Below are positions 1 through 48,882 of a DNA stretch of 64,000 nucleotides, one piece after another (position 1 is the stretch's first letter; the number at the start of each line of letters is the position of its first letter). The position numbers and the translations under genes were made by a program. The DNA comes from a virus. Below the pieces are notes generated by a model. That model was not told the origin of the DNA. It made no database searches and saw only the letters and a list, made by a program, of their open reading frames with translations. Location: positions 22,795 to 86,794 of the IMG/VR virus record IMGVR_UViG_3300045988_039373; one strand, given 5' to 3'.

Positions 1-568
1 AGTCCGAACTTCTTTGGTGATAGCAAATGTGTAATACCTTTTCTCCTTTACCATTCTGACGGATAAGGAAGTCATAATACATAGAGCAGGGTATACGTCT
101 ACTACCATCATACCAATCGGTATCTAATCCGTCCATATCACCATTGAATATTGGTAATACTGCTTTACGAGTGTCATTATCGTCCTTCAGTAATCTTATC
201 AATGGTTTAATAACATGGATGATTCTCTCATTATAGGTATAATCAAATTTACCATTTACCAAGAACTGTTCCCATAAATCTTTTCTTAATTCCCAAGCTT
301 TACCTGGATTAATTATATCAGAGGTATCAATCCTTTCTTGGAACTCAGCATCTGCCCATTCCTTTGAATGTGAGAATACAAATAACCATACTGGGTCTCC
401 CAATGAAGTTAAGCAATATTGTTGGCAAATGAGTTCTTTAGTAATAAAATCCTCATTACCTTCAATCACTTTATTCTGATAGGTCTTTGGTTTTACAGTT
501 TGACCATAACTGTTGAGTTCTCTGCCCATTTCGGACATTAACTCAAAACTGTTAGAATATATCCTCAT
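1..568 (-). CDS. Thymidylate synthase (ThyA) family enzyme, C-terminus cut by the window edge. Could be a thymidylate synthase or a dNMP hydroxymethylase/methylase.
   Basis: Not in the ORF track because it is truncated. I translated it by hand from the ATG at 568-566: MRIYSNSFELMSEMG...DTRKAVLPIFN...RRIPCSMYYDFLIRQNGKGEKVLHICYHQRSSD. This matches the ThyA-family pattern (R-rich loop, catalytic P-C, YQRS-D block). Confidence 0.75.
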   Translation of the reverse strand, partial: MRIYSNSFELMSEMGRELNSYGQTVKPKTYQNKVIEGNEDFITKELICQQYCLTSLGDPVWLFVFSHSKEWADAEFQERIDTSDIINPGKAWELRKDLWEQFLVNGKFDYTYNERIIHVIKPLIRLLKDDNDTRKAVLPIFNGDMDGLDTDWYDGSRRIPCSMYYDFLIRQNGKGEKVLHICYHQRSSD

Positions 569-581
569 ATAATATAAATAT

Positions 582-776
582 TTAATTGTATGACATTGTA
601 GAACTAACCCAGGTCATATGCCAGTAGCGATATACAAAATCATCAAAATCCTCTACCTCTTTTAATAACAAGGGTATATCTGGTTCTCCCCCGTTCTTTT
701 TAATCTCAAAAACTTGGTAATAGAATTTGTTTACTAATCCTATACGCTTCTGATTTAAAAATTCCTTAGCTTCCAT
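582..776 (-). CDS. Hypothetical 64-aa protein between the two TS-fold genes
   Basis: ATG start verified at 776. Tightly packed in the operon, and its start overlaps the stop of the upstream gene. Confidence 0.5.
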   Translation of the reverse strand: MEAKEFLNQKRIGLVNKFYYQVFEIKKNGGEPDIPLLLKEVEDFDDFVYRYWHMTWVSSTMSYN

Positions 777-1686
777 TGTTCTTTTGTTTTAAAAGTTTCT
801 TTTTATAGGCTTTACGTTGAGAGTAAGAGATTACATTCTCCGGGTATTCTATATCCTCGTATTCAAGAAGTAATTCTTTTGCTTTCATTGATTTATATGT
901 TTCCTCATATAAATCTGGTCGAAGCACTTTAAAACTTCTAAAGAATACCTTGAATGAAGAAAATTCCTTCTCGGTACCATTTTGGAATTTTTTCCATATC
1001 TCTTTTATCCTCTTATTCCATGAATTCTCTTCTGCTCCCTTAAGTACCTTCTTCAAAGGTTTATGGGTATGATACATTAGAAGTGTCTCCACATTTCCGT
1101 ACATTTGAGTCGCAAATAGGTTGATTTGTACTGACTGGTCCGGCCCATATACGTACTCTGACATTCGTTGAATTAATAGGAAATCGAATATTAACCTCTT
1201 GGTAATCTCCGAAGCCCGAACTACCATTGTAATAACTGGGATGTCTTCCCCGAATCGTTTTGAAAAAGTCGCAGCTATTAGACATTGTTTACCGTTATCA
1301 TGGTGATTGTTAAACATATAAGTTATATTGTAATTCTGATTATACTTATTTCTCAGTACTCTCAGTTTACTACGCAACAAGTCAAGCTTATTAAAGTCTA
1401 TGTAGTTATTCAATAAGCTAGTCCACTTAGTTTCTTTATAATTGAAACATCTCCCATAATCAAATTCTGGGTCTACCCAGGCATTGCGTATCTTTATGAA
1501 TACGTTATACACTACTGCTACCCCACTATTGGCAATAGCCCCCTTTGCAAATAAAGCAGGCTCTAATCTTAGGAATCCCTCATTGAGTTTTTCCCATGCC
1601 TCTTGTGAAGTAGCAAATTCTAACGAATGGAGGGACTCCTCCGGATTAAGTTGAAGTCCCTCTAATTTATGGTTCCATCCTGACAT
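766..1686 (-). CDS. Highly divergent thymidylate-synthase-fold paralogue (possible dCMP-specific hydroxymethylase or methylase)
   Basis: Start re-set to the ATG at 1686 (MSGWNHKLEG...), directly after the TAG stop of the upstream gene at 1690-1688. Has a Cys block GKQCLIAATFSKR, then MVVRASEITKRLIFDFLLIQRMSEYV (aligns by eye to YQRSxDxxLGxPFNIASY), then INLFATQMYGN (aligns to GDxHxYxNH). Confidence 0.5.
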   Translation of the reverse strand: MSGWNHKLEGLQLNPEESLHSLEFATSQEAWEKLNEGFLRLEPALFAKGAIANSGVAVVYNVFIKIRNAWVDPEFDYGRCFNYKETKWTSLLNNYIDFNKLDLLRSKLRVLRNKYNQNYNITYMFNNHHDNGKQCLIAATFSKRFGEDIPVITMVVRASEITKRLIFDFLLIQRMSEYVYGPDQSVQINLFATQMYGNVETLLMYHTHKPLKKVLKGAEENSWNKRIKEIWKKFQNGTEKEFSSFKVFFRSFKVLRPDLYEETYKSMKAKELLLEYEDIEYPENVISYSQRKAYKKKLLKQKNNGS

Positions 1687-1687
1687 G

Positions 1688-2533
1688 CTAGTAATTAGTA
1701 TTTTGTCTCCATAAATTGAGACGTTGTTTTTTAAAGAATAAACTAAATAATCCACAAGGAGTAAACCCATTCATGGCTAAAAATCCCATATAGAGATAGA
1801 ATGACTTTACCAAAGATTCCTGAAAATCTATTTCTTTGGTCATCACTTGAGTTTGTTTCCAGGGTCTACATTTAAGGAAGTTCCTTGCTTTATTAAGTTC
1901 ATATATTACTTCCCATAAATATAGCTTCTCATTTTCATGAGATATCTCGCTCATTTCATGAAAACCTGGGGTATAAGAAACTATCTTATCATATTCTGCT
2001 CTATCTTCTCTTGCCCAATCAGTTGGACTTAGTATAGGGTATTTCCTTACACTTCGATGGTCTGGGTACTTGATGAGTAAGTCTTTGACTCCAATTGCCA
2101 TTACCTCAAATAAACTCTTTGCATCTTGGTATTTTAATATATCTTCTGGCAATATATTAGAATACAAAAGCAAAGTAAAGAAGAATCCCAAGGCATCTGC
2201 TTGTTCCTCATTTGCATTTGCTAGATGATTTAATACCTGAGTATATTCCTCTGAGGTTAAACAATCATTATTCCATCCATAATCACGATATATAGATACT
2301 ACTTCATCGGTAGATTCGAATCCTTCAGTTAACTCTTCAATAACTCTACCAATAAAATCCTTTAGAATAACTTGGCTCTTTGGATTATTTATATCTAATG
2401 GGTAATCTGGTAGCTTTTCTATGGATTTATACCCAGAGAATTGCTCTATCCCAAGAACATACATTTCTTGTAATATCCGTGCCTCAGTTTCTTCTACCTG
2501 AGGCACTTGTTCATTTATATTCCTGATGTCCAT
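1688..2533 (-). CDS. All-alpha NTP pyrophosphohydrolase (dimeric dUTPase / MazG-like family)
   Basis: Acidic metal-binding helices IEELTEGFES and NANEEQADALGF, plus a CRPWKQ motif typical of dimeric dUTPase-like enzymes. ATG verified at 2533. Confidence 0.5.
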   Translation of the reverse strand: MDIRNINEQVPQVEETEARILQEMYVLGIEQFSGYKSIEKLPDYPLDINNPKSQVILKDFIGRVIEELTEGFESTDEVVSIYRDYGWNNDCLTSEEYTQVLNHLANANEEQADALGFFFTLLLYSNILPEDILKYQDAKSLFEVMAIGVKDLLIKYPDHRSVRKYPILSPTDWAREDRAEYDKIVSYTPGFHEMSEISHENEKLYLWEVIYELNKARNFLKCRPWKQTQVMTKEIDFQESLVKSFYLYMGFLAMNGFTPCGLFSLFFKKQRLNLWRQNTNY

Positions 2534-2535
2534 GA

Positions 2536-3075
2536 TTATTTACTTCCTGATGAACCAAAACCATTCCCTCCTCTACTTCCCCACATCTGGGATTCAGTAT
2601 AAAATTCCTCTTGTTGAATCTCTTCTGGTTCAGTAATATAGATAGGTACATGAATAAATTGTACCAGCTTCTGGCCAGCCTCAATAACCTGGGCTTCTTG
2701 AGAAGTGTTGTATACTCCAATGTGTATCTCTCCAACATAGGGAGAATCTACTATCTCGGCAGTAAAGATTAACCCTTTCTTAGTAGCTATACCAGATTTG
2801 TTTGCTGCCATTAACATAGATGCAGGAGGTTCTAGCAAACCTTTGATACCTGATGGGATAAGTATACGATGACCTGGTTTTAAAGCTATATGCCTTACGA
2901 ATGATTCACTAAAGGGTATATCCAAATCATATCCTCCTGAATCAAATTCATTCTTAGAGTGGATATCCTCTGAAGTCAAGTTGGTTGGTACATAAAAATC
3001 TAACCCAGCATCATTTGGGTTTGCTCTGTTGGGAGATACTACCTCCCTTACTTTGATAAATCTAAATCTGTTCAT
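2536..3075 (-). CDS. dut: Trimeric dUTP pyrophosphatase
   Basis: Classical dUTPase motifs: AGLDFYVP, NKSGIATKKGLI, IVDSPYVGEIHIGVYN, GQKLVQF, and C-terminal RGGNGFGSSG. Confidence 0.9.
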   Translation of the reverse strand: MNRFRFIKVREVVSPNRANPNDAGLDFYVPTNLTSEDIHSKNEFDSGGYDLDIPFSESFVRHIALKPGHRILIPSGIKGLLEPPASMLMAANKSGIATKKGLIFTAEIVDSPYVGEIHIGVYNTSQEAQVIEAGQKLVQFIHVPIYITEPEEIQQEEFYTESQMWGSRGGNGFGSSGSK

Positions 3076-3278
3076 AATATATTACATTTACGTAAAAGTT
3101 GTCCAAAGGTTAATTTCTCGGGTCTAGAAACATGTACTCCCAATGAATTACACATTCTAATTACATCGGTAGAACCTTCCATACACAAATTAGCAAGTAC
3201 ATCACTTTGCTTTACAAAATAGTTTGGGTTGTTAAGGTATACCTTGAACATAGCCCATATCATCTCTATTGGTTTCAT
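3072..3278 (-). CDS. Hypothetical protein (68 aa)
   Basis: ATG verified. Start and stop overlap the neighbouring genes. Confidence 0.5.
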   Translation of the reverse strand: MKPIEMIWAMFKVYLNNPNYFVKQSDVLANLCMEGSTDVIRMCNSLGVHVSRPEKLTFGQLLRKCNIL

Positions 3279-3661
3279 TATTTAATACACTCTTTATAAA
3301 GTTCTCTAATACGTTTTCTAGGTACTTCAAATTTCTCAACGGTTTTGGTAATAACCTCTTTTCTGTCTTTCCCTTTCCGAATCAAGCCTCGGATGTATTT
3401 CTTGATACCAACCGTATCTTCTAATACATCCAAATCCTTGTATTGATTCTTCTGTTCTAGCTCTTTCCTTGTGATATTCAAGTTCTGAGACATCTTGAAT
3501 GCACATAATTCTGAGTCTCCGCATAGCTTACACTCTTTAGTTGATAGGTCATACCCAATACCGAAGCAAGGGTCTCCATTAGTTCCCAGAGTACTAACAT
3601 CTATGGGAGTAAGGATATCTTGCTTCGATAAGTCAGGAAGTTGTTTCTTTTTCTTAGCCAT
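3278..3661 (-). CDS. Hypothetical basic protein with a Cys cluster (127 aa)
   Basis: ORF with a verified ATG. Contains CFGIGY...CKLCGDSELC and a Lys/Arg-rich C-terminus. Confidence 0.55.
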   Translation of the reverse strand: MAKKKKQLPDLSKQDILTPIDVSTLGTNGDPCFGIGYDLSTKECKLCGDSELCAFKMSQNLNITRKELEQKNQYKDLDVLEDTVGIKKYIRGLIRKGKDRKEVITKTVEKFEVPRKRIRELYKECIK

Positions 3662-3679
3662 TATAGGTCTTTTTTATGT

Positions 3680-3985
3680 TTATAAATAAATGTATATTTC
3701 ACTGTTATCTTCTATGGGAACATAGGAATAACCGATGTTATTAATAAATAGTTCCCTGAGTTTATATAATTCTTGGTATGAATTTCTATCATGGCTCTCT
3801 TGACATACTTTGACTACCATACCATTACTCCAGTACAAACAAAAGAAATGAGTAAAGCATTCGGGAGTATTTTGAGAAGTTTCCAAGCTTGATATCCATA
3901 TCAAATCTCTACAGTTGAATACATGTTTAGGATTATGTACCTCCCCAACAACAAGAGATTTAAACCATTCCCTAATCTTCTTCAT
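3680..3985 (-). CDS. Hypothetical protein
   Basis: The track ORF 3680-4102 overlaps the next gene heavily. The internal ATGs at 3988 and 3985 (MMKKIREWF...) give a compact arrangement. Confidence 0.4.
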   Translation of the reverse strand: MKKIREWFKSLVVGEVHNPKHVFNCRDLIWISSLETSQNTPECFTHFFCLYWSNGMVVKVCQESHDRNSYQELYKLRELFINNIGYSYVPIEDNSEIYIYL

Positions 3986-4178
3986 CATAAGTGTAATTAA
4001 TGTGTTTACAATTGGGACAGACCCATTCTTTGAAAGGCCATCCCTTAATTTCCAAATCCTTTTTATGAAAACGTTTCTTACATGAATGACATTGATAGCC
4101 ATCCTTAGAAAGTATGAAGTCTAAAGCGAGTATTATTATCATAATAACAACCGCTGTAATTAAAATATATTTCTCCAT
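3972..4178 (-). CDS. Membrane-anchored zinc-ribbon protein
   Basis: The track start at 4181 is GTG, and an ATG lies at 4178. N-terminal TM helix ILITAVVIMIIILALDFIL, then CHSCKK...CPNCKH. Confidence 0.5.
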   Translation of the reverse strand: MEKYILITAVVIMIIILALDFILSKDGYQCHSCKKRFHKKDLEIKGWPFKEWVCPNCKHINYTYDEED

Positions 4179-4345
4179 CACTGAAAGCCTTTGATTTTCT
4201 TTTTAGTGTTATTGGGTTTCCTTAAAAGTACCCAGCAATAAATACCGGATGCAGAGATTTGGATTATCTTCCAACCATCTGATAATAGAGTAGTTAGTTT
4301 AGTATCATCCTCATCTCTGATACATATTAGTTTATCATTATTCAT
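4178..4345 (-). CDS. Small hypothetical ORF (55 aa, below the ORF-track cutoff)
   Basis: Hand translation from the ATG at 4345: MNNDKLICIRDEDDTKLTTLLSDGWKIIQISASGIYCWVLLRKPNNTKKKIKGFQ. Its TGA overlaps the next ATG (TGATG). Confidence 0.3.
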   Translation of the reverse strand: MNNDKLICIRDEDDTKLTTLLSDGWKIIQISASGIYCWVLLRKPNNTKKKIKGFQ

Positions 4346-4420
4346 AATGCCTATATGCTTATTAATTGTAATCTTCTTTTCCTCCTACGGAGAAAAAGTA
4401 AATACTCATAGTACTTCTAG

Positions 4421-5908
4421 TTAACTCTTAATAAGGCTATGGTTAGGATGTTTCTTCCATAGCTTATCTAACAATATTACTTTCAATTCTTGTCTCTGAT
4501 AATATTGCTTCCTATGCTTACCATGCCTATCTAAATAAGGGCCAGGATAATGAAGGTCATCCAGGTATACTTTCTTTTTCGATTTATCGGTTCTTACCAA
4601 ACGACCAAGAAACTGAATAGATTTTTCCTGACTATCCATGCTTGCTGCATTAAGTAAATACCTAAGCTTAGGAAAGTTTTTACCTCGAGCAATGATTGTA
4701 GTTGATACCAAGATATCTATTTTGCCTTCCCTAAAATCCATCATTATTTGTTGTCTTAACTTAGAGGGAGTATTAACATGCACATAGGCAATATTATAGG
4801 CATCGCCCAGTTTCTTTTTAAAGAACTTATATAGATTTTCACAATGTGCAATATGCTTGCATACTACAAGAGCAGGATATCTACCTTGATTAATATTCCA
4901 TCGTAATCGATTATAAGCCATGGTCCACGCGGTATTATTTTCGGTAATAGAATCATCATATATCTCCTTATAGGATATACAATCAGATTCCCAATTACCA
5001 TACCAAGGTTTACCGGGTACCATCTTTACGATAGTTTTAGTTGAGTAACCCTTCTTGATGGAATCCTTAAGTTTAAACTCAGCAATCACTTTACCAAAGA
5101 AACATTCTAGGTTCATATTCTTAACCCTATCCTTAGCAAGCTTACTCATATAAATCGTACCAGATAATCCTATACGAATTCTGGTATTAAATAACCGAGT
5201 GATTACATTCTGATATTGCTTACTACCTCCTTGGTCAGCCTCATCTATAAGTACCATATCTATTTGAGATAATTCCTTTTGATAGAATCTCATATTTCTC
5301 GAAATAGATTGAACCATACCTATAGTAAAGTTACTCCAGTTTAAAACCTTGCCTTGAACAAAAGTGATATCTTCTCCGGGAAGATATTGCTTAAATTCTT
5401 CTCTAGCTTGATTTAACCAATCCGAATCATTAGTTATTAGCAAAGTCTTTAACTGCTTCTTATAGGATAAATATAAAGACGACATGATAAGTGTTTTACC
5501 TGCATTAACAGTGTAATCTAATACGCCAATATGAAAAGGTGTATTCCCTATCTTATTATTGATAACTGCCTTAACAGCTTTCTCTTGCTCTGGTCTTAAT
5601 TTATATTTGCCTATATTCGTAACTACTTTACTGACTTTAGGTAAAGGTTGTCTCATATCTACAACTTTAGGTTTAATCCCCATCTCAATACACATATCGT
5701 ATACTTTGGGAAGTAAACCTATTTTAAATTGCCCAGTCTTGGTGATGTAATGAATCTTACCGTCCCAATTCTGCATACCTCTTTGCCTTGTACGTAAGTA
5801 GAAAGCATTTGGATGTCGAATAGCGAACTCATTATAAAGTTTTTGTGCGAACTTAAGAGGTAAGTCGAGTTCGCACATATTCCCATTCTGTATGATTATC
5901 CTACTCAT
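4421..5908 (-). CDS. Superfamily-2 DNA helicase (DEAD/ResIII, UvsW-like)
   Basis: Walker A VNAGKTLIM, DEAD box LIDEAD, motif III LSGT, motif VI TTIIARGKNFP. Confidence 0.8.
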   Translation of the reverse strand: MSRIIIQNGNMCELDLPLKFAQKLYNEFAIRHPNAFYLRTRQRGMQNWDGKIHYITKTGQFKIGLLPKVYDMCIEMGIKPKVVDMRQPLPKVSKVVTNIGKYKLRPEQEKAVKAVINNKIGNTPFHIGVLDYTVNAGKTLIMSSLYLSYKKQLKTLLITNDSDWLNQAREEFKQYLPGEDITFVQGKVLNWSNFTIGMVQSISRNMRFYQKELSQIDMVLIDEADQGGSKQYQNVITRLFNTRIRIGLSGTIYMSKLAKDRVKNMNLECFFGKVIAEFKLKDSIKKGYSTKTIVKMVPGKPWYGNWESDCISYKEIYDDSITENNTAWTMAYNRLRWNINQGRYPALVVCKHIAHCENLYKFFKKKLGDAYNIAYVHVNTPSKLRQQIMMDFREGKIDILVSTTIIARGKNFPKLRYLLNAASMDSQEKSIQFLGRLVRTDKSKKKVYLDDLHYPGPYLDRHGKHRKQYYQRQELKVILLDKLWKKHPNHSLIKS

Positions 5909-6492
5909 TTGATAATTACCGTTACACCCTTAGTAGATTTATCCATACCCATTGCTTCCTTGAGAAGTTTAATATGATGCTCCTCATCCGCAATCAATTT
6001 CTCAAGGAAATAATTCACGTCATCGTAATCTGGGCGTTCTTCGTATTGAGCAATTGCTCTTTGAATTTTCTTGTAGTGACCAATAGTTTCTATCTCGGAA
6101 TTCAAAGCAATCTTTAAAGCTTGTTCCCAAGTAGAACCAATCTCAATCGTAGGATTAATATTCATGGTAGAGTAATCCTCATAGGGATCTGCCTTTTGTA
6201 AAAAGTCCGATATCTTATCAAGGTGTCTCATCTCTACCAAACCAATACCCAACATCAATTCTGATATTTCTTCAAATCTAGAAGACTGTTGGGTATACAT
6301 AATGATGGCACTTAGTTCTGAGAACTTGGCATTCTTCCAAATCACATAGAACATATTAATTATCTCATCAGGCCATGGTTCGATATCCTTAAAATCTGGA
6401 TAATCCACGGATTGGTCTGAATACTTGAGGACATCTATAAAAGCATTAGCTGCATCCTCTACTCTGTTTCCGAAAAATTGTAAACCTTTCAT
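5905..6492 (-). CDS. Ferritin-like di-iron four-helix-bundle protein
   Basis: Two ExxH motifs (VEMRHL and DEEHHIKLL), each preceded by a spaced Glu (FSELSA, NSEIETIGHY). Confidence 0.5.
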   Translation of the reverse strand: MKGLQFFGNRVEDAANAFIDVLKYSDQSVDYPDFKDIEPWPDEIINMFYVIWKNAKFSELSAIIMYTQQSSRFEEISELMLGIGLVEMRHLDKISDFLQKADPYEDYSTMNINPTIEIGSTWEQALKIALNSEIETIGHYKKIQRAIAQYEERPDYDDVNYFLEKLIADEEHHIKLLKEAMGMDKSTKGVTVIIK

Positions 6493-6493
6493 A

Positions 6494-7315
6494 TCATTTT
6501 CTTATTTTATCCCAAAGGGAACCTTCAACTTCTGGTTCACCTTCAAGTAGTTGTTTATTCTTATATTTATATAAATACTTATTGTATCTTTCAATTGCTT
6601 TATCCGTATACATTTGTGCAATATCCGGTAACCCATTGCACCATGCAAGAGATTCAAACTGAGCATCGATGAAGGTCTTATAATTCCAGCCCTCCTCTTT
6701 TAGGAATTCACCTACCTTTGCAAAGTGTACATACTTCTCGGGTTGATTTTCATAAGACTCATATATACCAGTTGCCTTAGCAATCTTACCTATGAAATAA
6801 TCATGTATCTCTTTAGTAAGTTCTAAATCTGAATGTTGTAATTCTATCTCAGCATCTATCTGATTAGTAATGTTCTCCTGCATGGATAATAACCTTTGCA
6901 TAACATTACGATAATCAGTCATCCTCTTTAACCCAGTCTCAATGTATTTAATAAAACCTTCCCGGGTATCAAATTTGAAATCTTCACAGAAGTTATTACA
7001 TACTTCTGCAAGCTTTTTACAATTTGCCCATTCCCGAGAATTACTTTCATTTATTTTACGAACCCCTCTATGCTTTAACTTTATACGAGTTGCATATAAA
7101 ATATCAGCAACAAGGGCAGCATCCCCCTTAGATGCTAGTAAAATGTTATTAACTCGCTTAGTATTCTTATTGTTAGAAACTAAGACTGCTCTATGATTTA
7201 TTGCCTCCTTTCGAGCAATAACAAAAAAAGCCTCAACTGGGAAATTATCTACCTCTAGGGTATTTAATATTTCCTCAAATTGAGACTTAGTTATATGGAT
7301 AGATGGTTCACGCAT
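6494..7315 (-). CDS. Hypothetical replication-module protein (273 aa)
   Basis: Long ORF with a verified ATG, between the ferritin-like gene and the primase. No motif recognised. Confidence 0.6.
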   Translation of the reverse strand: MREPSIHITKSQFEEILNTLEVDNFPVEAFFVIARKEAINHRAVLVSNNKNTKRVNNILLASKGDAALVADILYATRIKLKHRGVRKINESNSREWANCKKLAEVCNNFCEDFKFDTREGFIKYIETGLKRMTDYRNVMQRLLSMQENITNQIDAEIELQHSDLELTKEIHDYFIGKIAKATGIYESYENQPEKYVHFAKVGEFLKEEGWNYKTFIDAQFESLAWCNGLPDIAQMYTDKAIERYNKYLYKYKNKQLLEGEPEVEGSLWDKIRK

Positions 7316-7348
7316 AAATATATTATTTTATAATATAATAGGAACTCC

Positions 7349-8302
7349 CTATTTCAATGAGTTTCTGATTGATATCAATTCTTGATAACTTTGGTACCTG
7401 GTAGCATATACTAGCTTAAGTGTCTGACTTCTCCCTAAATCATTTACGTCTTTTCCGTCTGGTAAAAACACCACCTTGACTTTTTTATATGCAACAAGCT
7501 TGAGAGCCAAGTTGATGGCATATTCTTTTGCGTCTGGGTCCAACAATATAATAAATCTTTCGCATTGGGATTTAAGTAACTCATTGACTTGGAATGCAGA
7601 TATAGCTTTGCCCATTGTGGCAATTGCTCTATCCCCAATTGTGAGAGCATTAAGTGCCCCTTCGCAAATGAATACCGACCGATACATCTCCAACGCATCA
7701 TGATTAAAGATGATAAATTGTTTTCCCAAACCGGTGATGTCTTTGTCTGGGTTATTATATCTGGGTCCTTTGCCAATAACATTTCGAGCATTGTAATACC
7801 TAAGTTGTCCTCGATAATAAAACGGGATGATAAGGTACCCATATGTCGTACCCATTGTTCCATATCCGATACCACATCTTGAAAACTTCTCGAGGTTAAA
7901 GCCGCGTTTCTTGATATATCCACGAATGCTTTTTGCAAGTTGGCTGTCTCCGAGCGAAATATTTCTAAATCCATCTGGGAGATATACGGGCTTACTTTCG
8001 GCAAGTTCGATTTTCTCTTCCTTAAACTGTAGTTCATCAAATTGGCCATTGTTCAAAAAATTAATTAGTTCATGGTACTCAGTAAATCCTTCTATATCCA
8101 TTATTAGTTGAGCAGGAGAAGGATGGGCATTACATCTAAAACAATTGGTTCTATACATAGAAAGGTTAACTCCCAACTTATGTTCTCTCCCACAATAGGG
8201 GCAAGTTGGTATACGCATCCAGCCATGCCGGTAATCGTAACCTCCCAATCGTTTAATAAAGTATGTCCTTAGTCTAGATTTAAACTGATTGGTTATTTTC
8301 AT
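7349..8302 (-). CDS. DNA primase (zinc finger + TOPRIM)
   Basis: Zinc finger CPYCGREHKL...CFRCNAH. TOPRIM Glu in VFICEGALNALT and DxD in ILLDPDAKEY. Confidence 0.8.
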   Translation of the reverse strand: MKITNQFKSRLRTYFIKRLGGYDYRHGWMRIPTCPYCGREHKLGVNLSMYRTNCFRCNAHPSPAQLIMDIEGFTEYHELINFLNNGQFDELQFKEEKIELAESKPVYLPDGFRNISLGDSQLAKSIRGYIKKRGFNLEKFSRCGIGYGTMGTTYGYLIIPFYYRGQLRYYNARNVIGKGPRYNNPDKDITGLGKQFIIFNHDALEMYRSVFICEGALNALTIGDRAIATMGKAISAFQVNELLKSQCERFIILLDPDAKEYAINLALKLVAYKKVKVVFLPDGKDVNDLGRSQTLKLVYATRYQSYQELISIRNSLK

Positions 8303-8424: not shown

Positions 8425-9006
8425 CTATCTTTTACTACCTCTACTTTCTTTGTTTTCATAACTGTTATTTAATATATTACGAATTACCCTATCACCAACT
8501 CCAAATCTCTTTCCTAGAACCCTTAATAAAGTTTTGTTTACTTTCCATTTAGTAAACCCTAATTGGATTAGTTCAGATAGTAATGTATTATAATAAGCTT
8601 TTACTTTAGGTATATCATTTAAGTTTAATTTACGATGTATATTATCCTTACCCATTACTGAAATCAGATTATTACCATCCCTGATAGATTGGTATACATT
8701 TTCTTTCTGGGTACCCCATTTTAGATTCTTATAATAATTATTATAAATATCGTTATCTAAGTGCATTACTACAGGTAAATTATTGGGGTTAGGTACATAA
8801 ACAGTAGCTACTAATCTGTGAACAAAAATCTTTGTAGACTTACCATCCCTATAAAGGGATACACTATAGTATTTGGGACGTTTCTTTGGTATTAGTGGGG
8901 TAAACTCATTACTTAATTTACCCCTACTTCCTCGGACATATCTTGAATATACGCTCCCAGTTTTAGAAACGTAGTATCCCATAAATCCTGGTATATTATC
9001 TTTCAT
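8425..9006 (-). CDS. HNH homing endonuclease (NUMOD4-like N-terminus + HNH_3-like core)
   Basis: IPGFMGYYVSKTGSVYS at the N-terminus and VMHLDNDIYNNYYKNLKWGTQKEN. Free-standing between the primase and helicase genes. Confidence 0.8.
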   Translation of the reverse strand: MKDNIPGFMGYYVSKTGSVYSRYVRGSRGKLSNEFTPLIPKKRPKYYSVSLYRDGKSTKIFVHRLVATVYVPNPNNLPVVMHLDNDIYNNYYKNLKWGTQKENVYQSIRDGNNLISVMGKDNIHRKLNLNDIPKVKAYYNTLLSELIQLGFTKWKVNKTLLRVLGKRFGVGDRVIRNILNNSYENKESRGSKR

Positions 9007-10442
9007 TATATATCTCCTTGCTTTTTGTTATATTTCTCTATATTAGCATCTGGGTTACTAGAACTTTTTAGAGAATTATCTAGTTGTTCTCCATATACCC
9101 TGTCATATTCTTTTCGTTGTTCTCTAGTAAATTCGGTACACCGTTGAGTTTCTGTAGAGCATTTAAAAAGAGCTCTACCTGATGGTAGACCATCCCTTTG
9201 AACCACTATCTCGGCCCTTAATATATCATCCCTTTCTTCTTGTTCTGTAGCATTTAACCCCATAATTACTTGAGCATTTCTTACTATGGCTATAGAACCA
9301 GATATATCATTTTCATCATATCTGGTTTTTCTATGTTTTTTACCCTCTCTAGTAATATGATGTGCAGTCCAGATTATATCAAGTTTCATTTCTTCGGCTA
9401 AGTTACTCAAGTCTATATATACATTAGATATTCTTTCGAAATCTTCCCTATCCCCCGCTATTGATGCAAGTTTACCAGCGTAGTCAACCATAAGAACTTT
9501 AATATCGATTCCTTGATTACGAAGTTGAATTATCTTTTCCCTTATATAAGTGGTATTAGTAATCATTGCTGGTACACGCTCAACCACTAATTCAACTCCA
9601 AACCTTGCAAGTTTCCTTAAATGCTTTGCCTCGAGTTTATCATATTCACCTGAATATAATTCCTTCTTGGTTTTATTAATACTTGATTGAATGAAACGGT
9701 CCATGATTTGGTCCTGACCATTTTCTGTATCTATATATAATACTGACTTCTTCATTCTGAGATAACCTCTTGCAAGGTTTACCATAAAGAATGTCTTCTT
9801 TGCTTTGGGTTTATCCAATATCACATTTACAGAATGCTCTGGATAACCTCCTGCATTGGTAAGGTCATTCAATTGCCTATATGGGCAAGGTATTACTGAT
9901 GGTTCAGATTGTCTTTTAAACTGTCTTTCTGTAACATCTCGTATCATATATAGGGGTTCATCCTCTTTCTTAGGTTTACTTTTCTGTAGTACCTTTTCAA
10001 TCTTCCTTGAATACTCTTCATATTGTTCGAAGTTATCCAAGTCGAAGGAATCATTTAGGTTCTTCATTTCAACGTAAGTAGAGAACTGATATATCCTTTC
10101 CTTGATATATTCTGAATCAGATAAAGGAATATGATACAGATTACTTATCAGTTTTTGAATACTGGGCAAGTCATCCTTAGTTACTAAATCGACGTATGCC
10201 TTTGATTCTAGCAATTCTTTTATCACCTGCTTCAGGATATTTTCTGAAGGCATCTTGCCTTGCTTTTTAAAATACTTTGATATGCCCTCGAATATAAGAG
10301 CATGTTCTATGAGAACCAGATAACTTGATTTAACCCGACGTAGGACTAAACCACCTTCTTTATCCCTTAAAATGAACCGGAGTATCTCTAACTGGAAGTC
10401 CGGAGTGAAACTAAATTTAACTAAATCTTTAAACTTTTTCAT
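9006..10442 (-). CDS. DnaB-like / RecA-fold replicative helicase
   Basis: The track start at 10511 is TTG, and the first in-frame ATG is at 10442 (MKKFKDLVKF). Degenerate P-loop LDKPKAKKTFFMVNLA, Walker B KVLMVDYAG, and IIWTAHHITREG. Confidence 0.65.
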   Translation of the reverse strand: MKKFKDLVKFSFTPDFQLEILRFILRDKEGGLVLRRVKSSYLVLIEHALIFEGISKYFKKQGKMPSENILKQVIKELLESKAYVDLVTKDDLPSIQKLISNLYHIPLSDSEYIKERIYQFSTYVEMKNLNDSFDLDNFEQYEEYSRKIEKVLQKSKPKKEDEPLYMIRDVTERQFKRQSEPSVIPCPYRQLNDLTNAGGYPEHSVNVILDKPKAKKTFFMVNLARGYLRMKKSVLYIDTENGQDQIMDRFIQSSINKTKKELYSGEYDKLEAKHLRKLARFGVELVVERVPAMITNTTYIREKIIQLRNQGIDIKVLMVDYAGKLASIAGDREDFERISNVYIDLSNLAEEMKLDIIWTAHHITREGKKHRKTRYDENDISGSIAIVRNAQVIMGLNATEQEERDDILRAEIVVQRDGLPSGRALFKCSTETQRCTEFTREQRKEYDRVYGEQLDNSLKSSSNPDANIEKYNKKQGDI

Positions 10443-10588
10443 ATCTATATTGCAATATTTATAAACTAATAGATTTTGATAGTACCGAGATAGTTCTGAG
10501 CATGTTGACAACTATCTAGAAACATACTAATCCACTACCTTAAGCTCAAGTATATTTAATATTATTATTTTATATAAGAAAAAATACT

Positions 10589-10596
10589 TATATTTG
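10589..10596 (+). promoter_or_regulatory. Bacteroidota-type -7 box TATATTTG for the plus-strand gene at 10619
   Basis: Exact TAnnTTTG match 23 nt upstream of the ATG, within CTTATATTTGCATAACG. This is the same TATATTTGCAT core as the other promoters in the window. Confidence 0.6.
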
Positions 10597-10618
10597 CATA
10601 ACGAATATTTAAAAGAAC

Positions 10619-11272
10619 ATGGGAAAAAGTAAAGGAAATAATGGCTCAGAGCTTCATAGATTAAAACCTATGCAGGAATATGATGAAGCTACATTCAACA
10701 GACTTTATAAAGTTTGTAAGCCAGTAATCAGAAATCTTACCCGACAGATTGATTATAAAAGGTTTAATCTTACACCTGATATCATTCAGTCTTATTTCTG
10801 GGATAAGATGTTATTTGTTTTCAACAAATACTATGGTGAATGTACTGAAGAACATCTTAAAGCAAGAATCCTTGCATCACTTAGTACATTCAAGAATAAA
10901 CTACTTCGTTCGGCATACGGAGAACAAGCAGAGTATAATCAAAATCTCTTTAAGCTTGATGATTTGTTTGATAATGACAAAGAATTAGAGGATGATAGTG
11001 AACAAGAGAAAGCTAAATCCGAAATGCTTGATATGATGTATAAGTATATGAAGGATAAACTTTCTCCCGATGCCCATCTCCTATTCGAGGTATTATTAAC
11101 TCCCCCTCCTTTTATTAAAGAGAGGCTTGGAGATAGTACTCGAATTACCAACATAATGCTTATAGAGTTTTTCGAAATGCCTAAGACTAATGATTCTATG
11201 AGATATATCTCAGAACTTAGACAAGATATCCAATACTGGGAAGATAGAGCTAAGGAAGAACTTAAGTATTAA
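10619..11272 (+). CDS. Hypothetical regulator, possibly a sigma-factor-like protein
   Basis: The only plus-strand gene in 0-51 kb. The N-terminal part (FNRLYKVCKPVIRNLTRQI...DIIQSYFWDKMLFVF) resembles sigma region 2. The product call is weak. Confidence 0.4.
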   Translation: MGKSKGNNGSELHRLKPMQEYDEATFNRLYKVCKPVIRNLTRQIDYKRFNLTPDIIQSYFWDKMLFVFNKYYGECTEEHLKARILASLSTFKNKLLRSAYGEQAEYNQNLFKLDDLFDNDKELEDDSEQEKAKSEMLDMMYKYMKDKLSPDAHLLFEVLLTPPPFIKERLGDSTRITNIMLIEFFEMPKTNDSMRYISELRQDIQYWEDRAKEELKY

Positions 11273-18619: not shown

Positions 18620-20537
18620 AATTACTTACATAATTACTTAATCTTATTTTTTTCTTTAGGTATTCCTTGAAGTTCTTCATGGCCACTGCCTGATAATCAA
18701 ATTTAACCCAATAATCATCTGGCACCTGAACTTCCTTGATTGTAATCTTGCCAGGTATGTACTTACCGGTAGATGTAGTAAGATTACCTTCACTGATAAT
18801 CATACCTTCGGCTTTTTCAAGTGGGTCTTTTGCAACTACTTCGGTATAGTAAGCTTTCTTCCGTATAAACTCATCTGCAGCTCTCCAGTCTTTTAATTGA
18901 CCATTCTTGTCCATGAAGTTCTCTACGAAGTATACTACCTCGTTATAGGTGAAGTCAAGTACCAATTCATTAGTATTACTCAAAGCCTTTTTATCTTTAC
19001 CCTTATCCGTCTTACTGTTTGCCTTAGCTTCATTGGCTACAATAGTTTGAGTAGATAAACCGGACTTAGCTGTAACTGAACCTGATTTACCAGCATTCTT
19101 AACTAATTCTAAATTAGTTACATAACCTTGACCTGCATCCATAGAGTGAGTACACTGTTTAATATACCAAGGTCCTGACCAACGTTTACCTACATTCTCA
19201 ATTATGATAATCTGAGATGATGCTAGAGAAGGTCTGCCCACTACTTGCATTTTACATACAATACGTTTCTCTGTATGCTTTAAACCGCCATTAGCATTAG
19301 CATTAGCTGCCCAAGCATATTTATCGGCTCCCCCATATCTACCAAATAGGTTATGATAAAGCTTATAGATGGGCACATCCATATTAGCCTTTTTCCAATG
19401 TTGTACTTTCACACTGATACTGTAAATTCCCAAGCTTTGATTAAGAGGGTTCTTATACTTGATAACTGGAGTGTCATCTATTACGATTGCATACGGGTCA
19501 TCTTTTAAAGCTTGTATACCTCGATTTACACTTGCCATGTCTTCAGATCCCCAAGCAGTAGCACCTCCCTTATTAGCATGTTGAGGGTCATAATCTCTTG
19601 GGTCTACATCTTCTACAGTCATGTAAGTCATTTGGTCTTCACCTTCAAATAGATACCTCTCATTCTTCAATATCTTATAAAGATTAGCCTCTAACTCTTT
19701 ACCTGTTTTTGAATTACGTAATGCTTGTTGTACGGCAGATTTACGGTCACTTGGTAAATTAGAAACTGCTTGATTGATGGATTCTTTTAGTTCAGTAAGG
19801 CTCATCTCATCTAGATGTTTCTGTTTACCATTCCTATAAGCTTCTGCAGGGTTAGCAGCATTGTATTCAGCTACGTCACTATTCCAATCGTAATTCAATT
19901 CTTTCTCTGCTGCAACCGCTGCTTTGAAATTCATATCATTAGCTAGAGCATGTTCTATCTGAATACTTCGTACTTTCCAAATATCTTCGGGATTATTCTC
20001 TGCCCCATATTTACCTACTGAAGTATGCCAATTTTTGTAGTATACACCATTTGCCTCATTGGGCATTACTTGAGGTAAGTTGTTATCTTCTGGTTCTTTT
20101 ATACCTGTAGTGACTACATTTAAGTCTTTAGTCTCTGGACTTACCAAAGGAGATAGAGTTGCCTTAACTCTTTTGGTAATGTTCTCCATGGCAAAAGATA
20201 CACTAAGTACCTCACCATTCTCACCTTGATAGGTATAAGTATGAACTGGTTCCTCATTGAACTTACGATTATGTATATAGATAACTCCATCCCTGGAATC
20301 TACATACCAAGGCCCATTAGTATAACCTTTCATCTTCTGTTCTAATTGAACCAAGATATTCTTACCCACCAAACCAAAGTCGCTATCAATTAAAGCCTTT
20401 AAATCCTCAGGCATAGCTACTTGAGCTACTCCACTAAACCGGTTAGCATAAAGCACCTTTCCAGTAGTAGTTCGAGTATTTTCTGTAGGCACTTGTAGTG
20501 ACTCATATACTTTATTACTTATTATCTGTTGTTCCAT
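18564..20537 (-). CDS. Baseplate hub / tail protein (gpD / Mu gp44 position)
   Basis: 657-aa ORF upstream of the spike gene. Call is by position only. Its basic C-terminal tail overlaps the spike gene start by 56 nt. Confidence 0.45.
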   Translation of the reverse strand: MEQQIISNKVYESLQVPTENTRTTTGKVLYANRFSGVAQVAMPEDLKALIDSDFGLVGKNILVQLEQKMKGYTNGPWYVDSRDGVIYIHNRKFNEEPVHTYTYQGENGEVLSVSFAMENITKRVKATLSPLVSPETKDLNVVTTGIKEPEDNNLPQVMPNEANGVYYKNWHTSVGKYGAENNPEDIWKVRSIQIEHALANDMNFKAAVAAEKELNYDWNSDVAEYNAANPAEAYRNGKQKHLDEMSLTELKESINQAVSNLPSDRKSAVQQALRNSKTGKELEANLYKILKNERYLFEGEDQMTYMTVEDVDPRDYDPQHANKGGATAWGSEDMASVNRGIQALKDDPYAIVIDDTPVIKYKNPLNQSLGIYSISVKVQHWKKANMDVPIYKLYHNLFGRYGGADKYAWAANANANGGLKHTEKRIVCKMQVVGRPSLASSQIIIIENVGKRWSGPWYIKQCTHSMDAGQGYVTNLELVKNAGKSGSVTAKSGLSTQTIVANEAKANSKTDKGKDKKALSNTNELVLDFTYNEVVYFVENFMDKNGQLKDWRAADEFIRKKAYYTEVVAKDPLEKAEGMIISEGNLTTSTGKYIPGKITIKEVQVPDDYWVKFDYQAVAMKNFKEYLKKKIRLSNYVSNYGIRNCKDNNRRRPRRPW

Positions 20538-40246: not shown

Positions 40247-41139
40247 AACTTAGTTAAGATTGATTTCTTACCACCTTTTACTGGAGCACTTGGGTTGGGT
40301 CCATCTAATACTCCAGGTTGCCTTCTGTTAACTACTTTAGGAACTACGGTTCTGAATACTTCATCACAGAATGGTAAGTAGATTTCCAATCGTGAAGCTA
40401 ACATACAAAGGTTCTTTCTTAATTCATCTATTAATCCACCTGGTTGCATTGCTTGAGAAAGTGTTTTCCATAGGGAACTTGTAGCATCTGCCAAGGTATC
40501 ATAATATTGCACTTCAGTAGGCCCAGTAGTGATTTGTTTAATCCTATCACCTCGGGCAAGTTCGGGTTTAGAAGTACCATCACCAGTTTGTTCTTTGGTA
40601 GAAGTTAATTGACTTAAGTATTCGGAAGTACTCGTTAATAGATTAAGTATCTTCACATTGAGAAAATCCCAGGCAGCCAATTCCATTATTAATTGGTTTT
40701 CTAGTGCTTCATACCATAATTCATCCGTATACTTATCTGGTGCAATTGTATGGTTTACTAGAGGTCCAATGTAATATTGCCACTTAGTGATGTAAATAGA
40801 TTTCTCTTCCCTGGTCATCCCATCGGATATTTCTGAAGGGATATAATGGTCGATTAAGTTATATATTGTATCGGCTAATGCCGTATGCCCATAATCACAA
40901 ACTACCAGAGTCTTATCTACGGTGATATCTAAACCGCTAGAGTTAGTTACATGTAATGTTACGGTATAGAAACCGGGAGTTTCATAAGAATAGGAAACAT
41001 GTCTTCCACCATTGAAAACCTCTCCCTTATCATCGCCAAAGTCCCAGTCAAAAATAGATTTGGCCGGGACTTTGGATATGACTCTGAATGAAACTTCCAG
41101 ACCTGACGTAACGTACAAAAAGTCCAGATTGTTATTCAT
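40243..41139 (-). CDS. PKD-domain protein (298 aa)
   Basis: FDWDFGDDKGEVFNGGRHVSYSYETPGFYTVTLHVTNSSG is a canonical PKD signature. Confidence 0.65.
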   Translation of the reverse strand: MNNNLDFLYVTSGLEVSFRVISKVPAKSIFDWDFGDDKGEVFNGGRHVSYSYETPGFYTVTLHVTNSSGLDITVDKTLVVCDYGHTALADTIYNLIDHYIPSEISDGMTREEKSIYITKWQYYIGPLVNHTIAPDKYTDELWYEALENQLIMELAAWDFLNVKILNLLTSTSEYLSQLTSTKEQTGDGTSKPELARGDRIKQITTGPTEVQYYDTLADATSSLWKTLSQAMQPGGLIDELRKNLCMLASRLEIYLPFCDEVFRTVVPKVVNRRQPGVLDGPNPSAPVKGGKKSILTKL

Positions 41140-41168
41140 ATTAGTCTGTCTTATGTAATTTTCATAGA

Positions 41169-41570
41169 TTACCCTTTAGAAGAGGATTCGAATTCTTCCA
41201 GCAAAGCCTGAAGAATTGTTTCTACTGTATCATCTTTCTCGGCAACGATTTCATGAAGACCTGCTACCAGTTTCAGTTCTTCCAGGGAATAGCCCTTTGC
41301 AAGTTTTTCAAGAGTCATGCCTTTCTTGAACTGAGCATTCAGTCTCTTATCCAACTTTTCGATGTCGGCCTCTGAATACTTTTCGATTTCTGATTTATCA
41401 GCAATGATAATCAGATGGCCAGAGGCAATTGCCTTCTGAATCTTTGGTGCACGGAATTGACGACGAGAGAGTTCCTTGTCTTCTCCTCTACAAACGGTAA
41501 TACCAGTTGATTGGTCATGAAAACTGTAAGCTCTTGGTCCCACAGTTACTGTATATTTATCTTTAGCCAT
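41169..41570 (-). CDS. Hypothetical protein downstream of the MCP (133 aa)
   Basis: ATG verified. Lies after the MCP terminator hairpin. Confidence 0.5.
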   Translation of the reverse strand: MAKDKYTVTVGPRAYSFHDQSTGITVCRGEDKELSRRQFRAPKIQKAIASGHLIIIADKSEIEKYSEADIEKLDKRLNAQFKKGMTLEKLAKGYSLEELKLVAGLHEIVAEKDDTVETILQALLEEFESSSKG

Positions 41571-41597
41571 ATTTCCTAAGATTTAAAAATGATTAAA

Positions 41598-41635
41598 GAG
41601 AGGATAGGTCTTTTTTTTTAGTTACCTACCCTCTC
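41598..41635 (-). terminator. Hairpin after the major capsid gene
   Basis: 12-bp stem GAGAGGATAGGT / ACCTACCCTCTC with one mismatch and a T-rich loop. Confidence 0.55.
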
Positions 41636-41670
41636 AGGGAATTTATATAGATGAAACCGTACGTCCCTTA

Positions 41671-42792: not shown

Positions 42793-42805
42793 AACTTCTT
42801 TTCTC

Positions 42806-43276
42806 TTATTTGATGAGTACTTGAATTACCTCATTTGCCTCTTCTGCTGGATTAAGGGCAATGAACTGGGTTGAAGTTGCTTGGTTAGCTTTTACGAATC
42901 TATCGTTAAGCAATTCTCCATCGGGAGTTACATAGCCAGCTTCGATATTTTCGTTTGATACCCAGTTACAAATCATGTAACCTTCCATAGCTACTGTTAC
43001 CTCTACCGGGAAATTTCTTTGAGGTTGATAAGCAGGGTTAACGTTATCCGTTACTGCTACACCCAAATAAACTTGAGTAGCTACATCAGTGCAAGGGTAA
43101 ATCAAACCTTCTTCATTCAAAGCTACTGGCATACCCTGTACGATTTTCTCTCCAGCTTTAACATTGAAAGCCTGGTGCAATTTGTGTGACTCACTTTTGT
43201 AAATCACCGCTCTCGGGGTTCTTTCCCCAAAGAGAGTAAGTTGCTGAGGGTCGTTTACGATTTTAGTTTTTTCCAT
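42806..43276 (-). CDS. Small capsid-associated protein (decoration / DUF2190-like position)
   Basis: 156 aa, between the protease/scaffold gene and the MCP. Confidence 0.4.
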   Translation of the reverse strand: MEKTKIVNDPQQLTLFGERTPRAVIYKSESHKLHQAFNVKAGEKIVQGMPVALNEEGLIYPCTDVATQVYLGVAVTDNVNPAYQPQRNFPVEVTVAMEGYMICNWVSNENIEAGYVTPDGELLNDRFVKANQATSTQFIALNPAEEANEVIQVLIK

Positions 43277-43297
43277 AACGCGGATTATTTATATTAG

Positions 43298-47798: not shown

Positions 47799-47801
47799 TA
47801 C

Positions 47802-48413: not shown

Positions 48414-48627
48414 ACTTGATGAATTTCTTAATCTTACTCTTCAACCAATAGCGTTCTACTGAACTTAAGTTTGACTTAATAATGTGGAACTTGAATTGAA
48501 AAGTACGATTGGTTTCAATAATCTCAAAACGTATTGAAGGTAAATTCCGATAGATAACCCGAAAGAACTTAATGATGTTATTAATGTTCAATTCGGTAAT
48601 TGGGTACTTTGCATTAATCATTCTCAT
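48400..48627 (-). CDS. Hypothetical 75-aa protein, first gene of the packaging/virion operon
   Basis: ATG verified. Too small and featureless to call a small terminase. Confidence 0.4.
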   Translation of the reverse strand: MRMINAKYPITELNINNIIKFFRVIYRNLPSIRFEIIETNRTFQFKFHIIKSNLSSVERYWLKSKIKKFIKYEDI

Positions 48628-48880: not shown

Positions 48881-48882
48881 AC

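Follow-up and report, generated by a model that had tools for sequence, protein, structure and literature searches.

Does a cluster of pyrimidine nucleotide genes in a phage genome serve ordinary thymidylate supply, or does it prepare a modified base for the phage DNA? We asked this of a cluster in IMG/VR virus record IMGVR_UViG_3300045988_039373. The window, meaning the whole stretch of DNA analysed, is 64,000 nucleotides long (positions 22,795 to 86,794 of the record). Positions 2–3075 of the window form a compact operon on the minus strand. The genes lie in the order Dut, PPase, TS2, a short open reading frame (ORF) of 64 amino acids (aa), and TS1. Dut is a trimeric deoxyuridine triphosphatase (dUTPase), PPase is an all-alpha nucleoside triphosphate (NTP) pyrophosphatase, and TS1 and TS2 are related to thymidylate synthase (TS). 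We think that, in this abundant phage of the human gut, the operon probably encodes the nucleotide-level half of a pathway that replaces cytosine before replication, as in T4. Strong evidence for such a module comes from the Asp177 signature of TS1 (residues are given the numbers of their ThyA equivalents), a pyrophosphatase of the T4 gp56 family coupled to TS2, conserved synteny and a nearby gene resembling deoxynucleoside monophosphate (dNMP) kinases. The genes of the operon are as follows.

2–568, minus strand: TS1, a TS-family protein of predicted deoxycytidine monophosphate (dCMP) type; 189 of about 247 codons (the N-terminal part), running off the start of the window
582–776, minus strand: conserved 64-aa ORF between TS2 and TS1; its first 11 nucleotides overlap the 3′ end of TS2
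766–1686, minus strand: TS2, a divergent TS-fold protein of 306 aa; assigned by structure search and profile–profile alignment
1688–2533, minus strand: PPase, an all-alpha NTP pyrophosphatase of the PF08761 family and candidate deoxycytidine triphosphatase (dCTPase), 281 aa; assigned by Pfam, PHROG and motifs
2536–3075, minus strand: Dut, trimeric dUTPase, 179 aa; assigned by PF00692

A preliminary description of this DNA had proposed four pyrimidine enzymes in a row. All four are present and tightly packed on the minus strand, although the 64-aa ORF intervenes between the two TS genes. The same description saw a ThyA-family enzyme, a very divergent TS-fold protein, a pyrophosphatase of the dimeric dUTPase/MazG-like type and a classical Dut. 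As set out below, all four hold at the level of fold and family, and the first is refined. The operon genes are real and not chance ORFs, because they have hundreds of conserved homologues and their order is kept in 70 of 73 diverse viral loci.

TS1 resembles dCMP-specific members of the TS family

The TS1 fragment in the window terminates precisely at the motif YHQRSSD. Alone, it scores 15.7 bits against PF00303, under the cut-off of 24.3, and matches phrog_160 ('thymidylate synthase') with an E-value of 1e-9. The missing end was supplied by two IMG/VR loci, L020 and L045 (9122–9865), which share 98% DNA identity with the window across its first 600 nucleotides. Full-length TS1 has 247 aa and, in the L020 copy, passes the PF00303 cut-off with 44 bits. 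Scores against the NCBIfam ThyA equivalogs were 31.8–47.7 bits, against cut-offs of 174–327. The best of these were 47.7 versus 174.55 (TIGR03283) and 31.8 versus 327 (NF002495), and neither cut-off was reached. T4 gp42 scores in the same range.

We aligned TS1 with E. coli ThyA, T4 gp42 and a Mosigvirus homologue. TS1 shares the fold of E. coli ThyA and retains Tyr94, Arg126, the catalytic Cys146 of the P-C block (R-I-P-C-S), the phosphate-binding Arg166 and Ser167, the folate-contacting Asp169, and His207. The Cys, Arg, Ser and Asp169 can be read inside the window (RIPCS...YHQRSSD). TS1 differs from ThyA in having Asp for Asn177 (the residue of uracil recognition), Ser for His147 and Arg for Leu143. 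The following motif, RSSD-FVTHFG-ND, corresponds to RSND-VVFGFR-ND in T4 gp42, with a common x6-ND pattern. TS1 is also without the C-terminal ~35 residues of ThyA, which close over the folate. Arg143, Ser147, Asp169 and Asp177 occur in 79/79 close loci having TS1, as do Cys146 and Arg166. Among distant TS1 copies, all 69 with a readable motif likewise have Arg143, Ser147, Asp169 and Asp177, and Arg occupies position 143 in every TS1 copy, as R-[IVM]-P-C.

Asp177 is the accepted determinant of dCMP specificity, marking the switch from deoxyuridine monophosphate (dUMP) (PMC13326640). Similarly, positions 177 and 147 best split the TS homologues of cytosine-modified from those of unmodified viral contigs in the MetaGPA study (PMC8670742). 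Hence, the Asp177 of TS1 points to dCMP as substrate, and to cytosine rather than thymine as target base. The preliminary description was right to place TS1 in the TS family (PF00303, full-length), but Asp177 speaks against a ThyA that makes deoxythymidine monophosphate (dTMP). We rejected an identification as ThyA on account of Asp177 and the scores below all equivalog cut-offs. Judged by its sequence, TS1 is a dCMP-type TS homologue rather than ThyA.

TS2 is a divergent protein with a predicted TS fold

No Pfam or NCBIfam model matches TS2, and its only PHROG match is phrog_34294 ('unknown function'). Single-sequence searches of the PDB with TS2, and likewise with PPase, returned nothing. 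A TS2 profile compared with the PDB found no TS enzyme and only spurious matches to centrin. An exhaustive HMMER search gave 137 TS2 representatives at 50% clustering, and 71 were aligned (19–56% identity). Invariant in the 71 sequences are Y83, K87, W88, L91, Y95, C135, R157, R164 and D168. Nearly invariant are W31, N35, N94, F125, G132, K133, E160, R174 and R250; position 160 is Glu in 70/71. The core pattern C...R-x-x-[E/D]...R...D is present in 136/136 TS2 ORFs, from 16 clusters at 70% identity.

The 71-sequence alignment was used for an AlphaFold2 model of TS2, with a predicted local distance difference test score (pLDDT) of 92.2 and a predicted template modelling score (pTM) of 0.89. Foldseek found 12 PDB matches at E ≤ 1e-3. 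All have the TS fold, with probability 1.00 and template modelling scores (TM-scores) of 0.36–0.54, and nearly all 50 PDB entries among the matches listed are of this fold. The top matches are the cytidine monophosphate (CMP) hydroxymethylase MilA (1e-5), AfhB (9iqu; 7e-5) and T4 dCMP hydroxymethylase (2e-4). A search of BFVD returned TS2's own family first, followed by TS enzymes and dCMP hydroxymethylases. Consistent with this, hhalign aligned TS2 with TS profiles at E-values of 7.5e-5 (6-sequence profile) and 1.3e-4 (20-sequence profile), with probabilities of 54–62%. In this register C135 corresponds to Cys146, R157 to Arg166, E160 to Asp169 and D168 to position 177. TS2 would thus keep the nucleophile, an Arg for phosphate binding, an acidic residue at position 169 and the Asp typical of cytosine enzymes. 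Foldseek, BFVD and hhalign agree with the TS fold proposed earlier for this gene. On its predicted structure, TS2 is a genuine, very divergent TS-fold protein.

In the model, about 29 residues lead from the N-terminal hairpin to the helix before the Cys strand, and about 100 residues of unrelated helices follow the last core strand. The corresponding N-terminal stretch of ThyA has about 70 residues and carries Glu58, Trp80, Trp83 and Tyr94. The folate site of TS2 would be reduced or altered. No equivalent of the Arg126′/Arg127′ pair is seen in the 71-sequence alignment, and longer TS2 homologues contain no informative domain fusions. TS2 is nearly confined to phages; 185,579 species genomes gave 4 matches, all on contigs of metagenome-assembled genomes. 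We found nothing on TS2 or this phage group in the literature, with subscription journals mostly outside the coverage.

The pyrophosphatase belongs to the family of T4 gp56

The window PPase scores 20.4 bits against PF08761 (7e-4), just under the cut-off of 22.9. The cut-off is exceeded by homologues of 27–36% identity (30.9 and 46 bits), and PF08761 is assigned to nearly all relatives in databases. The window protein also matches phrog_12184 ('nucleotide pyrophosphohydrolase') at 9e-18, and the label of the Joint Genome Institute for its relatives is 'dimeric dUTPase (all-alpha-NTP-PPase superfamily)'. In 58 PPase sequences the residues E66, E67 and E70 (EExxE) and E109, E110 and D113 (EExxD) of the metal-binding motifs, and K269, N273 and R276 of the C-terminal phosphate motif, are invariant; Y281 is nearly so. 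T4 gp56 matches PF08761 too, and the C-terminal motif K-x3-N-x2-R-x4-Y is common to both proteins. A PPase profile compared with the PDB found the dimeric dUTPase of C. jejuni (1w2y), which has the same C-terminal motif, and the MazG-like structures 1vmg and 2gta. The conserved motifs of PPase align with T4 gp56 and with these three structures. The model of PPase is all-alpha (pLDDT 93.9). The PF08761 relatives and the invariant EExxE and EExxD motifs bear out the dimeric dUTPase/MazG-like assignment made earlier.

Dut matches PF00692 (3e-15; 56.5 bits versus a cut-off of 22), phrog_135 (6e-24) and TIGR00576 (5e-20). The five motifs of trimeric dUTPases can be read as AGLDF, NKSGIA, VDSPYVGE, KLVQF and RGGNGFGSSG. 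Dut is an ordinary sanitiser of deoxyuridine triphosphate (dUTP), the classical enzyme that had been described. The complete Dut adjoining PPase already takes care of dUTP, and the partners of PPase are of Asp177 type. Both points suggest deoxycytidine triphosphate (dCTP) as the target of PPase.

The module is conserved in diverse viruses

We next turn to gene order. A sub-alignment of 14 TS2 sequences sharing the motif RASEVTKR led to 73 diverse IMG/VR loci, in which ORFs were scored with our own hidden Markov models. PPase is present in 72/73 TS2 loci, most often directly upstream of TS2. An Asp-type TS1 lies downstream in 70/73, giving the order PPase-TS2(-TS2b)-TS1. Two tandem TS2 paralogues (TS2a and TS2b) occur in 63/73. 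The triad is also found in Logan contigs (TS2 identity 24–37%) and the same module in isolated Clostridium perfringens phages, for example E1. In phage E1 a 'thymidylate kinase' PHROG protein (3e-22) precedes PPase, and the family-A DNA polymerase gene (PolA) follows TS1. In several lineages, that of the window included, a related kinase-like gene is found downstream of PolA; in L001 it lies at 19352–19939 and encodes 195 aa.

The two TS-type genes can be separated. Distant PPase lineages (L090 and L091) have kinase-like, PPase, TS1-type and dCMP deaminase genes and no TS2. Conversely, in at least two lineages, L093 (5396–6870) and L157 (5176–7276), PPase-TS2 is present but TS1 is absent within 6 kb; dCMP deaminase and PolA directly follow in L157, and PolA is next in L093. 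This layout indicates that TS2 can be the sole TS-fold enzyme of the module. Hence, either TS1 or TS2 can be the only partner of PPase, and the two occur together in the lineage of the window. The dCMP deaminase is present in the relatives L086, L090, L091 and L157. A canonical, Asn177-type ThyA lies between TS2a and TS2b in L133 (3668–4639) and directly upstream of a 483-aa TS2 in L087 (2–658). The presence of a true ThyA alongside the module indicates that supply of dTMP is not the task of TS1 and TS2.

One relative encodes further candidate enzymes. The human-gut phage MT121964.1 (L092; record positions 40285–55025) has a tandem TS2 pair, IspD and LicD (5989–6978, 6971–7756, 9200–9898 and 9891–10763). 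An IspD-family cytidylyltransferase (PF01128, 1e-26) and a LicD-family phosphotransferase (PF04991, 8e-39) directly follow TS1, and PolA comes next. The set could make a new phospho-alcohol DNA hypermodification. The IspD and LicD genes have no homologue in the window or 80 close relatives.

Other genes adjoin the module in distant loci. An asparagine-synthase/glutamine-amidotransferase-like gene (PF00733, PF13537) is found in L090 (9260–10774) and L091 (4586–6004), next to the dCMP deaminase in L090 and to PPase in L091. It is a candidate for a further base-modification step. PPase of L091 also adjoins a PF00145 gene, of the C5-cytosine DNA methyltransferase family that is represented elsewhere in the window (below).

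Comparison with known systems

The TS1-PPase-kinase part has counterparts in T4 gp42/gp56/gp1 and in the MetaGPA modules, while TS2 is the new element. In T4, gp56 shares Pfam family PF08761 and the C-terminal K..N..R..Y motif with PPase. T4 gp42 shares with TS1 the 'ND' pattern, Asp177, Asp169 and a similar size (~245 aa). The two proteins differ in being only ~21% identical and in the Arg of TS1, where gp42 has Asp/Glu at the Leu143 position. The window's genome also has a kinase-like gene of 'thymidylate kinase' PHROG type, a putative counterpart of gp1. T4 uses gp56 for dUTP, whereas a separate trimeric Dut is present here; no glucosyltransferase was found here, and T4 has no counterpart of TS2.

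RB69 gp48 and HY126 AfhB (9iqu, 9iqc) have the TS fold, act on dCMP and carry Asp177 (PMC13326640). They are the closest solved relatives of TS1 by sequence and among the closest of TS2 by fold. Their D169N change is absent from TS1 and TS2, and no arabinose or other sugar genes were seen here. These enzymes show that the TS fold can drop folate chemistry (PMC13326640). MilA (5jnh, 5b6d), the CMP 5-hydroxymethylase of mildiomycin synthesis, is cytosine-specific and has Asp177. By sequence, the solved structures closest to TS1 are AfhB (9iqu; 3e-9) and then MilA (1e-5). By fold, MilA is the top Foldseek match of TS2. It differs in belonging to bacterial secondary metabolism and acting on a ribonucleotide; its identity to TS2 is 11–13%, its TM-score ~0.4, and its C-terminal domain is another one.

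The MetaGPA modules have a PF00303 homologue with Asp177 and a residue other than His147 beside an all-alpha NTP pyrophosphatase, as here (PMC8670742). They also contain the dCMP deaminase, which is carried here by relatives. They differ in having PRA-PH (PF01503) instead of PF08761, and carbamoyltransferases as downstream enzyme (PMC8670742). A term search of the main text of that study found no TS2-like second TS-fold gene.

A proposed pathway for cytosine replacement

From the folds, families, key residues and synteny described above we infer the substrates, the products and the modification of the DNA itself. In the first step, PPase would convert dCTP to dCMP. This would remove the canonical triphosphate and feed the next enzymes. 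TS1 would then add a one-carbon unit from methylene-tetrahydrofolate to C5 of dCMP. The most likely product would be 5-hydroxymethyl-dCMP, with 5-methyl-dCMP as alternative. Hydroxymethyl is favoured because Arg143 is polar and because the IspD/LicD set of MT121964 fits decoration of a hydroxyl, such as that of 5-hydroxymethylcytosine (5hmC). The P-loop 'thymidylate kinase'-like protein, encoded outside the window, and the host nucleoside diphosphate kinase would make the triphosphate. Finally, PolA of the phage would incorporate it. TS2, which is translationally coupled to PPase, would act at C5/C6 of dCMP or of the TS1 product.

Most likely, in our view, TS2 is a further enzyme that depends on Cys and modifies dCMP or the TS1 product, using a different co-substrate. 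Our confidence in any particular chemistry of TS2 is much lower than in the pathway as a whole. A further, tentative proposal is that TS2, with its catalytic Cys, cytosine-type Asp, apparently reduced folate site and novel C-terminal domain, represents a new class of TS-fold nucleotide modifiers that is essentially confined to phages. The class would produce a cytosine derivative not described before, in a very abundant group of human-gut phages, and would have diversified in relatives (TS2a/TS2b; IspD/LicD). Under that proposal, IspD and LicD in one relative would point to phospho-alcohol hypermodification on a hydroxymethyl group.

The pool remodelling of T4 gp42 and gp56 had been invoked in the preliminary description, and among the readings of the sequence it is the best supported, with the target refined to cytosine. 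That description also argued from the presence of two pyrophosphatases of different folds. Both are there, but the argument is weak alone since a Dut and a MazG-like enzyme are a common pair in phages.

Several observations weigh against cytosine replacement. One window gene (48883–49938, minus strand) codes for a protein resembling C5-cytosine DNA methyltransferases (PF00145, 2e-13; TIGR00675, 1e-8), with atypical motifs (SPDCG for PPC, ENLP for ENV). Such a gene argues against complete replacement because the enzyme would have no substrate on fully 5-substituted cytosine. The window as a whole contains 23 GATC sites against 248 expected in a Markov model based on trinucleotides, an 11-fold depletion, which suggests that the phage still relies on avoidance of restriction sites. 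Among the scanned ORFs of the window no glycosyltransferase was found, nor any other transferase that would act on a hydroxymethyl group, and no dCMP deaminase was found in the window's lineage. The Asp177 of the window's own TS1 lies 8 codons past the window edge and was read from the 98% identical contigs. At position 143, methylases have a hydrophobic residue and hydroxymethylases an acidic one that gives water access (PMC13326640). TS1 does not have the acidic residue expected of a gp42-type hydroxymethylase; with Arg, which falls into neither class, the rule predicts no product. For TS2, the sequence-profile link is moderate (hhalign 54–62%) and the TM-scores are 0.36–0.54. The substrate of PPase is not readable from its sequence. 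Structure searches had been suggested as a check on both proteins. For TS2 they returned only TS-fold matches at E ≤ 1e-3, but Foldseek comparison of the PPase model with the PDB gave generic helical bundles only (E ≥ 0.2). Because Foldseek is uninformative here, the family assignment of PPase rests on its motifs and Pfam.

Some of these points would suit an operon for ordinary supply and sanitation. TS1 would make dTMP for an AT-rich genome, PPase would be a MazG-type house-cleaning enzyme, Dut would remove dUTP and the DNA would be canonical. The genome has a guanine–cytosine (GC) content of only 34–42%, databases annotate TS1 homologues as 'thymidylate synthase', and both the methyltransferase-like gene and the avoidance of GATC point to ordinary DNA that is exposed to restriction. 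In addition, an Asn-type ThyA has been added to the module in some relatives (L087, L133). The last point cuts both ways, as a relative with an additional true ThyA implies that TS1 and TS2 do not serve that function. Given also the invariance of Asp177 in close and readable distant copies of TS1, and scores far under every ThyA cut-off, we regard ordinary supply as improbable. It is unlikely, though a little less so, that TS2 is non-enzymatic and only TS1 modifies dCMP. TS2 would then be a nucleotide-binding regulator, a scaffold or a heterodimer partner, for example one acting as a poison of host ThyA or as a modulator of TS1. The obligate dimers formed by TS enzymes, in which the subunits share their active sites, would allow such a role. 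The missing Arg126′/Arg127′ equivalent, and the TS1-type gene with PPase and no TS2 in L090 and L091, are consistent with it. Conversely, the Cys and Arg/Glu/Asp core is invariant across all 136 ORFs and 16 clusters, L093 and L157 have PPase-TS2 with no TS1 nearby, and tandem TS2a/TS2b with their motifs kept look like enzymatic diversification.

Replacement of thymine has also to be considered. Here dUMP would be hydroxymethylated as in SPO1, with PPase as a thymidine triphosphatase (dTTPase) or dUTPase. Dut would supply the dUMP, and all-alpha pyrophosphatases serve as dUTPases or dTTPases in some thymine-replacing phages. Both TS1 and TS2 have Asp at the Asn177 position, whereas the dUMP hydroxymethylases known to us keep Asn there, and this explanation seems to us very improbable. 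A different cytosine derivative, 5-hydroxycytosine, would result if TS1 and/or TS2 were a flavin-dependent 5-hydroxy-dCMP synthase like RB69 gp48 or HY126 AfhB. AfhB (9iqu/9iqc) is the best sequence match of TS1 among solved structures, and it has the top target-normalised TM-score (0.54) among the leading PDB matches of TS2, which also appears to be without much of the folate-binding segment. The D169N change marks these synthases and is reported for all verified ones (PMC13326640). By this rule we rejected both proteins as 5-hydroxy-dCMP synthases, since TS1 has Asp and TS2 has Glu at that position. Furthermore, no sugar-activation or glycosyltransferase genes are among the window ORFs scanned. 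We hold 5-hydroxycytosine to be improbable, and prefer the T4-style replacement of cytosine.

Gene boundaries and genomic context

The PPase stop codon (TAG) is followed by 1 nucleotide and then the ATG of TS2; a few bases separate the Dut stop from the PPase start. The mechanical ORF for TS2 spans 766–1770 (334 aa), longer than the reading adopted. Nearly all 120 TS2 homologues among the matches listed have 301–308 aa and start at the internal Met, and an exact-sequence look-up with the 334-aa ORF gave no match. Hence, we set the start at the internal Met.

The 64-aa ORF is also called in L001 (10914–11108) and in L020/L045, and has no Pfam or PHROG match. In other lineages its slot holds Cpn10, an HNH endonuclease or nothing. 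The ORF is specific to the window's lineage; in L092 the corresponding slot is taken by a 66-aa ORF unrelated to it. HNH homing endonucleases are encoded in the window (8425–9006, minus strand), L001 (8652–9158) and L088 (1903–2394 and 3855–4346). In L001 such an insertion separates Dut from PPase, and in L088 TS2 from TS1. Such varying insertion sites account for much of the spacing variation among relatives.

A 127-aa Cys-rich protein (3278–3661, minus strand; phrog_13400, 'unknown function') is encoded between a helicase and the Dut/PPase genes. Its motifs are G-x-x-x-DPCFG ... C-x-x-CGDSE-x-C. Clear homologues occupy the same position in the distant TS2-bearing loci L088, L092, L093, L109, L133 and L157, and the protein may belong to the module. 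A rubrerythrin/ferritin-like di-iron protein (5905–6492, minus strand; PF02915, 7e-7; PF00210, 8e-7) adjoins the SNF2-type helicase within the replication module, and is conserved in L001. Past TS1, the genomes of the lineage encode PolA, gp32-like, RecA-like, exonuclease, 195-aa P-loop and Mre11/Rad50-like proteins.

The window belongs to a very abundant group of ~85 kb contigs from human-gut metagenomes. A megablast comparison of window positions 1–6000 with 50,697 GenBank phage records gave no match, so the phage is not among sequenced isolates. The host is probably a member of the Bacteroidota. A BACON-domain protein (53263–54204, minus strand; PF13004, 1e-13) suggests such a host; the same argument is said to have been made for crAssphage. 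As for other features of composition, ATGCAT is absent from the whole window (11.6 expected), and the CpG odds ratio is 0.52 with no excess of TpG/CpA. An apparent depletion of GCGC and CGCG under a mononucleotide model vanished under the Markov model. It reflects scarcity of CpG and of the trinucleotides GCG and CGC, and was not used.

Implications

TS2 is a branch of the TS fold that Pfam, NCBIfam and PHROG annotation miss. Its catalytic core is strictly kept, its gene is consistently linked to that of a gp56-type pyrophosphatase, and gut metagenomes contain thousands of sequences with TS2. It comes to light soon after the TS fold was shown to carry out flavin-dependent C5 hydroxylation of dCMP (2025–2026). 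If TS2 does make a new base, a large share of an abundant clade of human-gut phages would have DNA resistant to restriction and to CRISPR. Library preparation would then be biased, and nanopore, PacBio and bisulfite-type analyses would misread such DNA. On a conservative reading, an Asp177-type TS homologue beside a dCTPase flags phages as likely to be cytosine-modified. Such a flag would be useful for virome quantification, for host-range studies and for sourcing new DNA-modifying enzymes.

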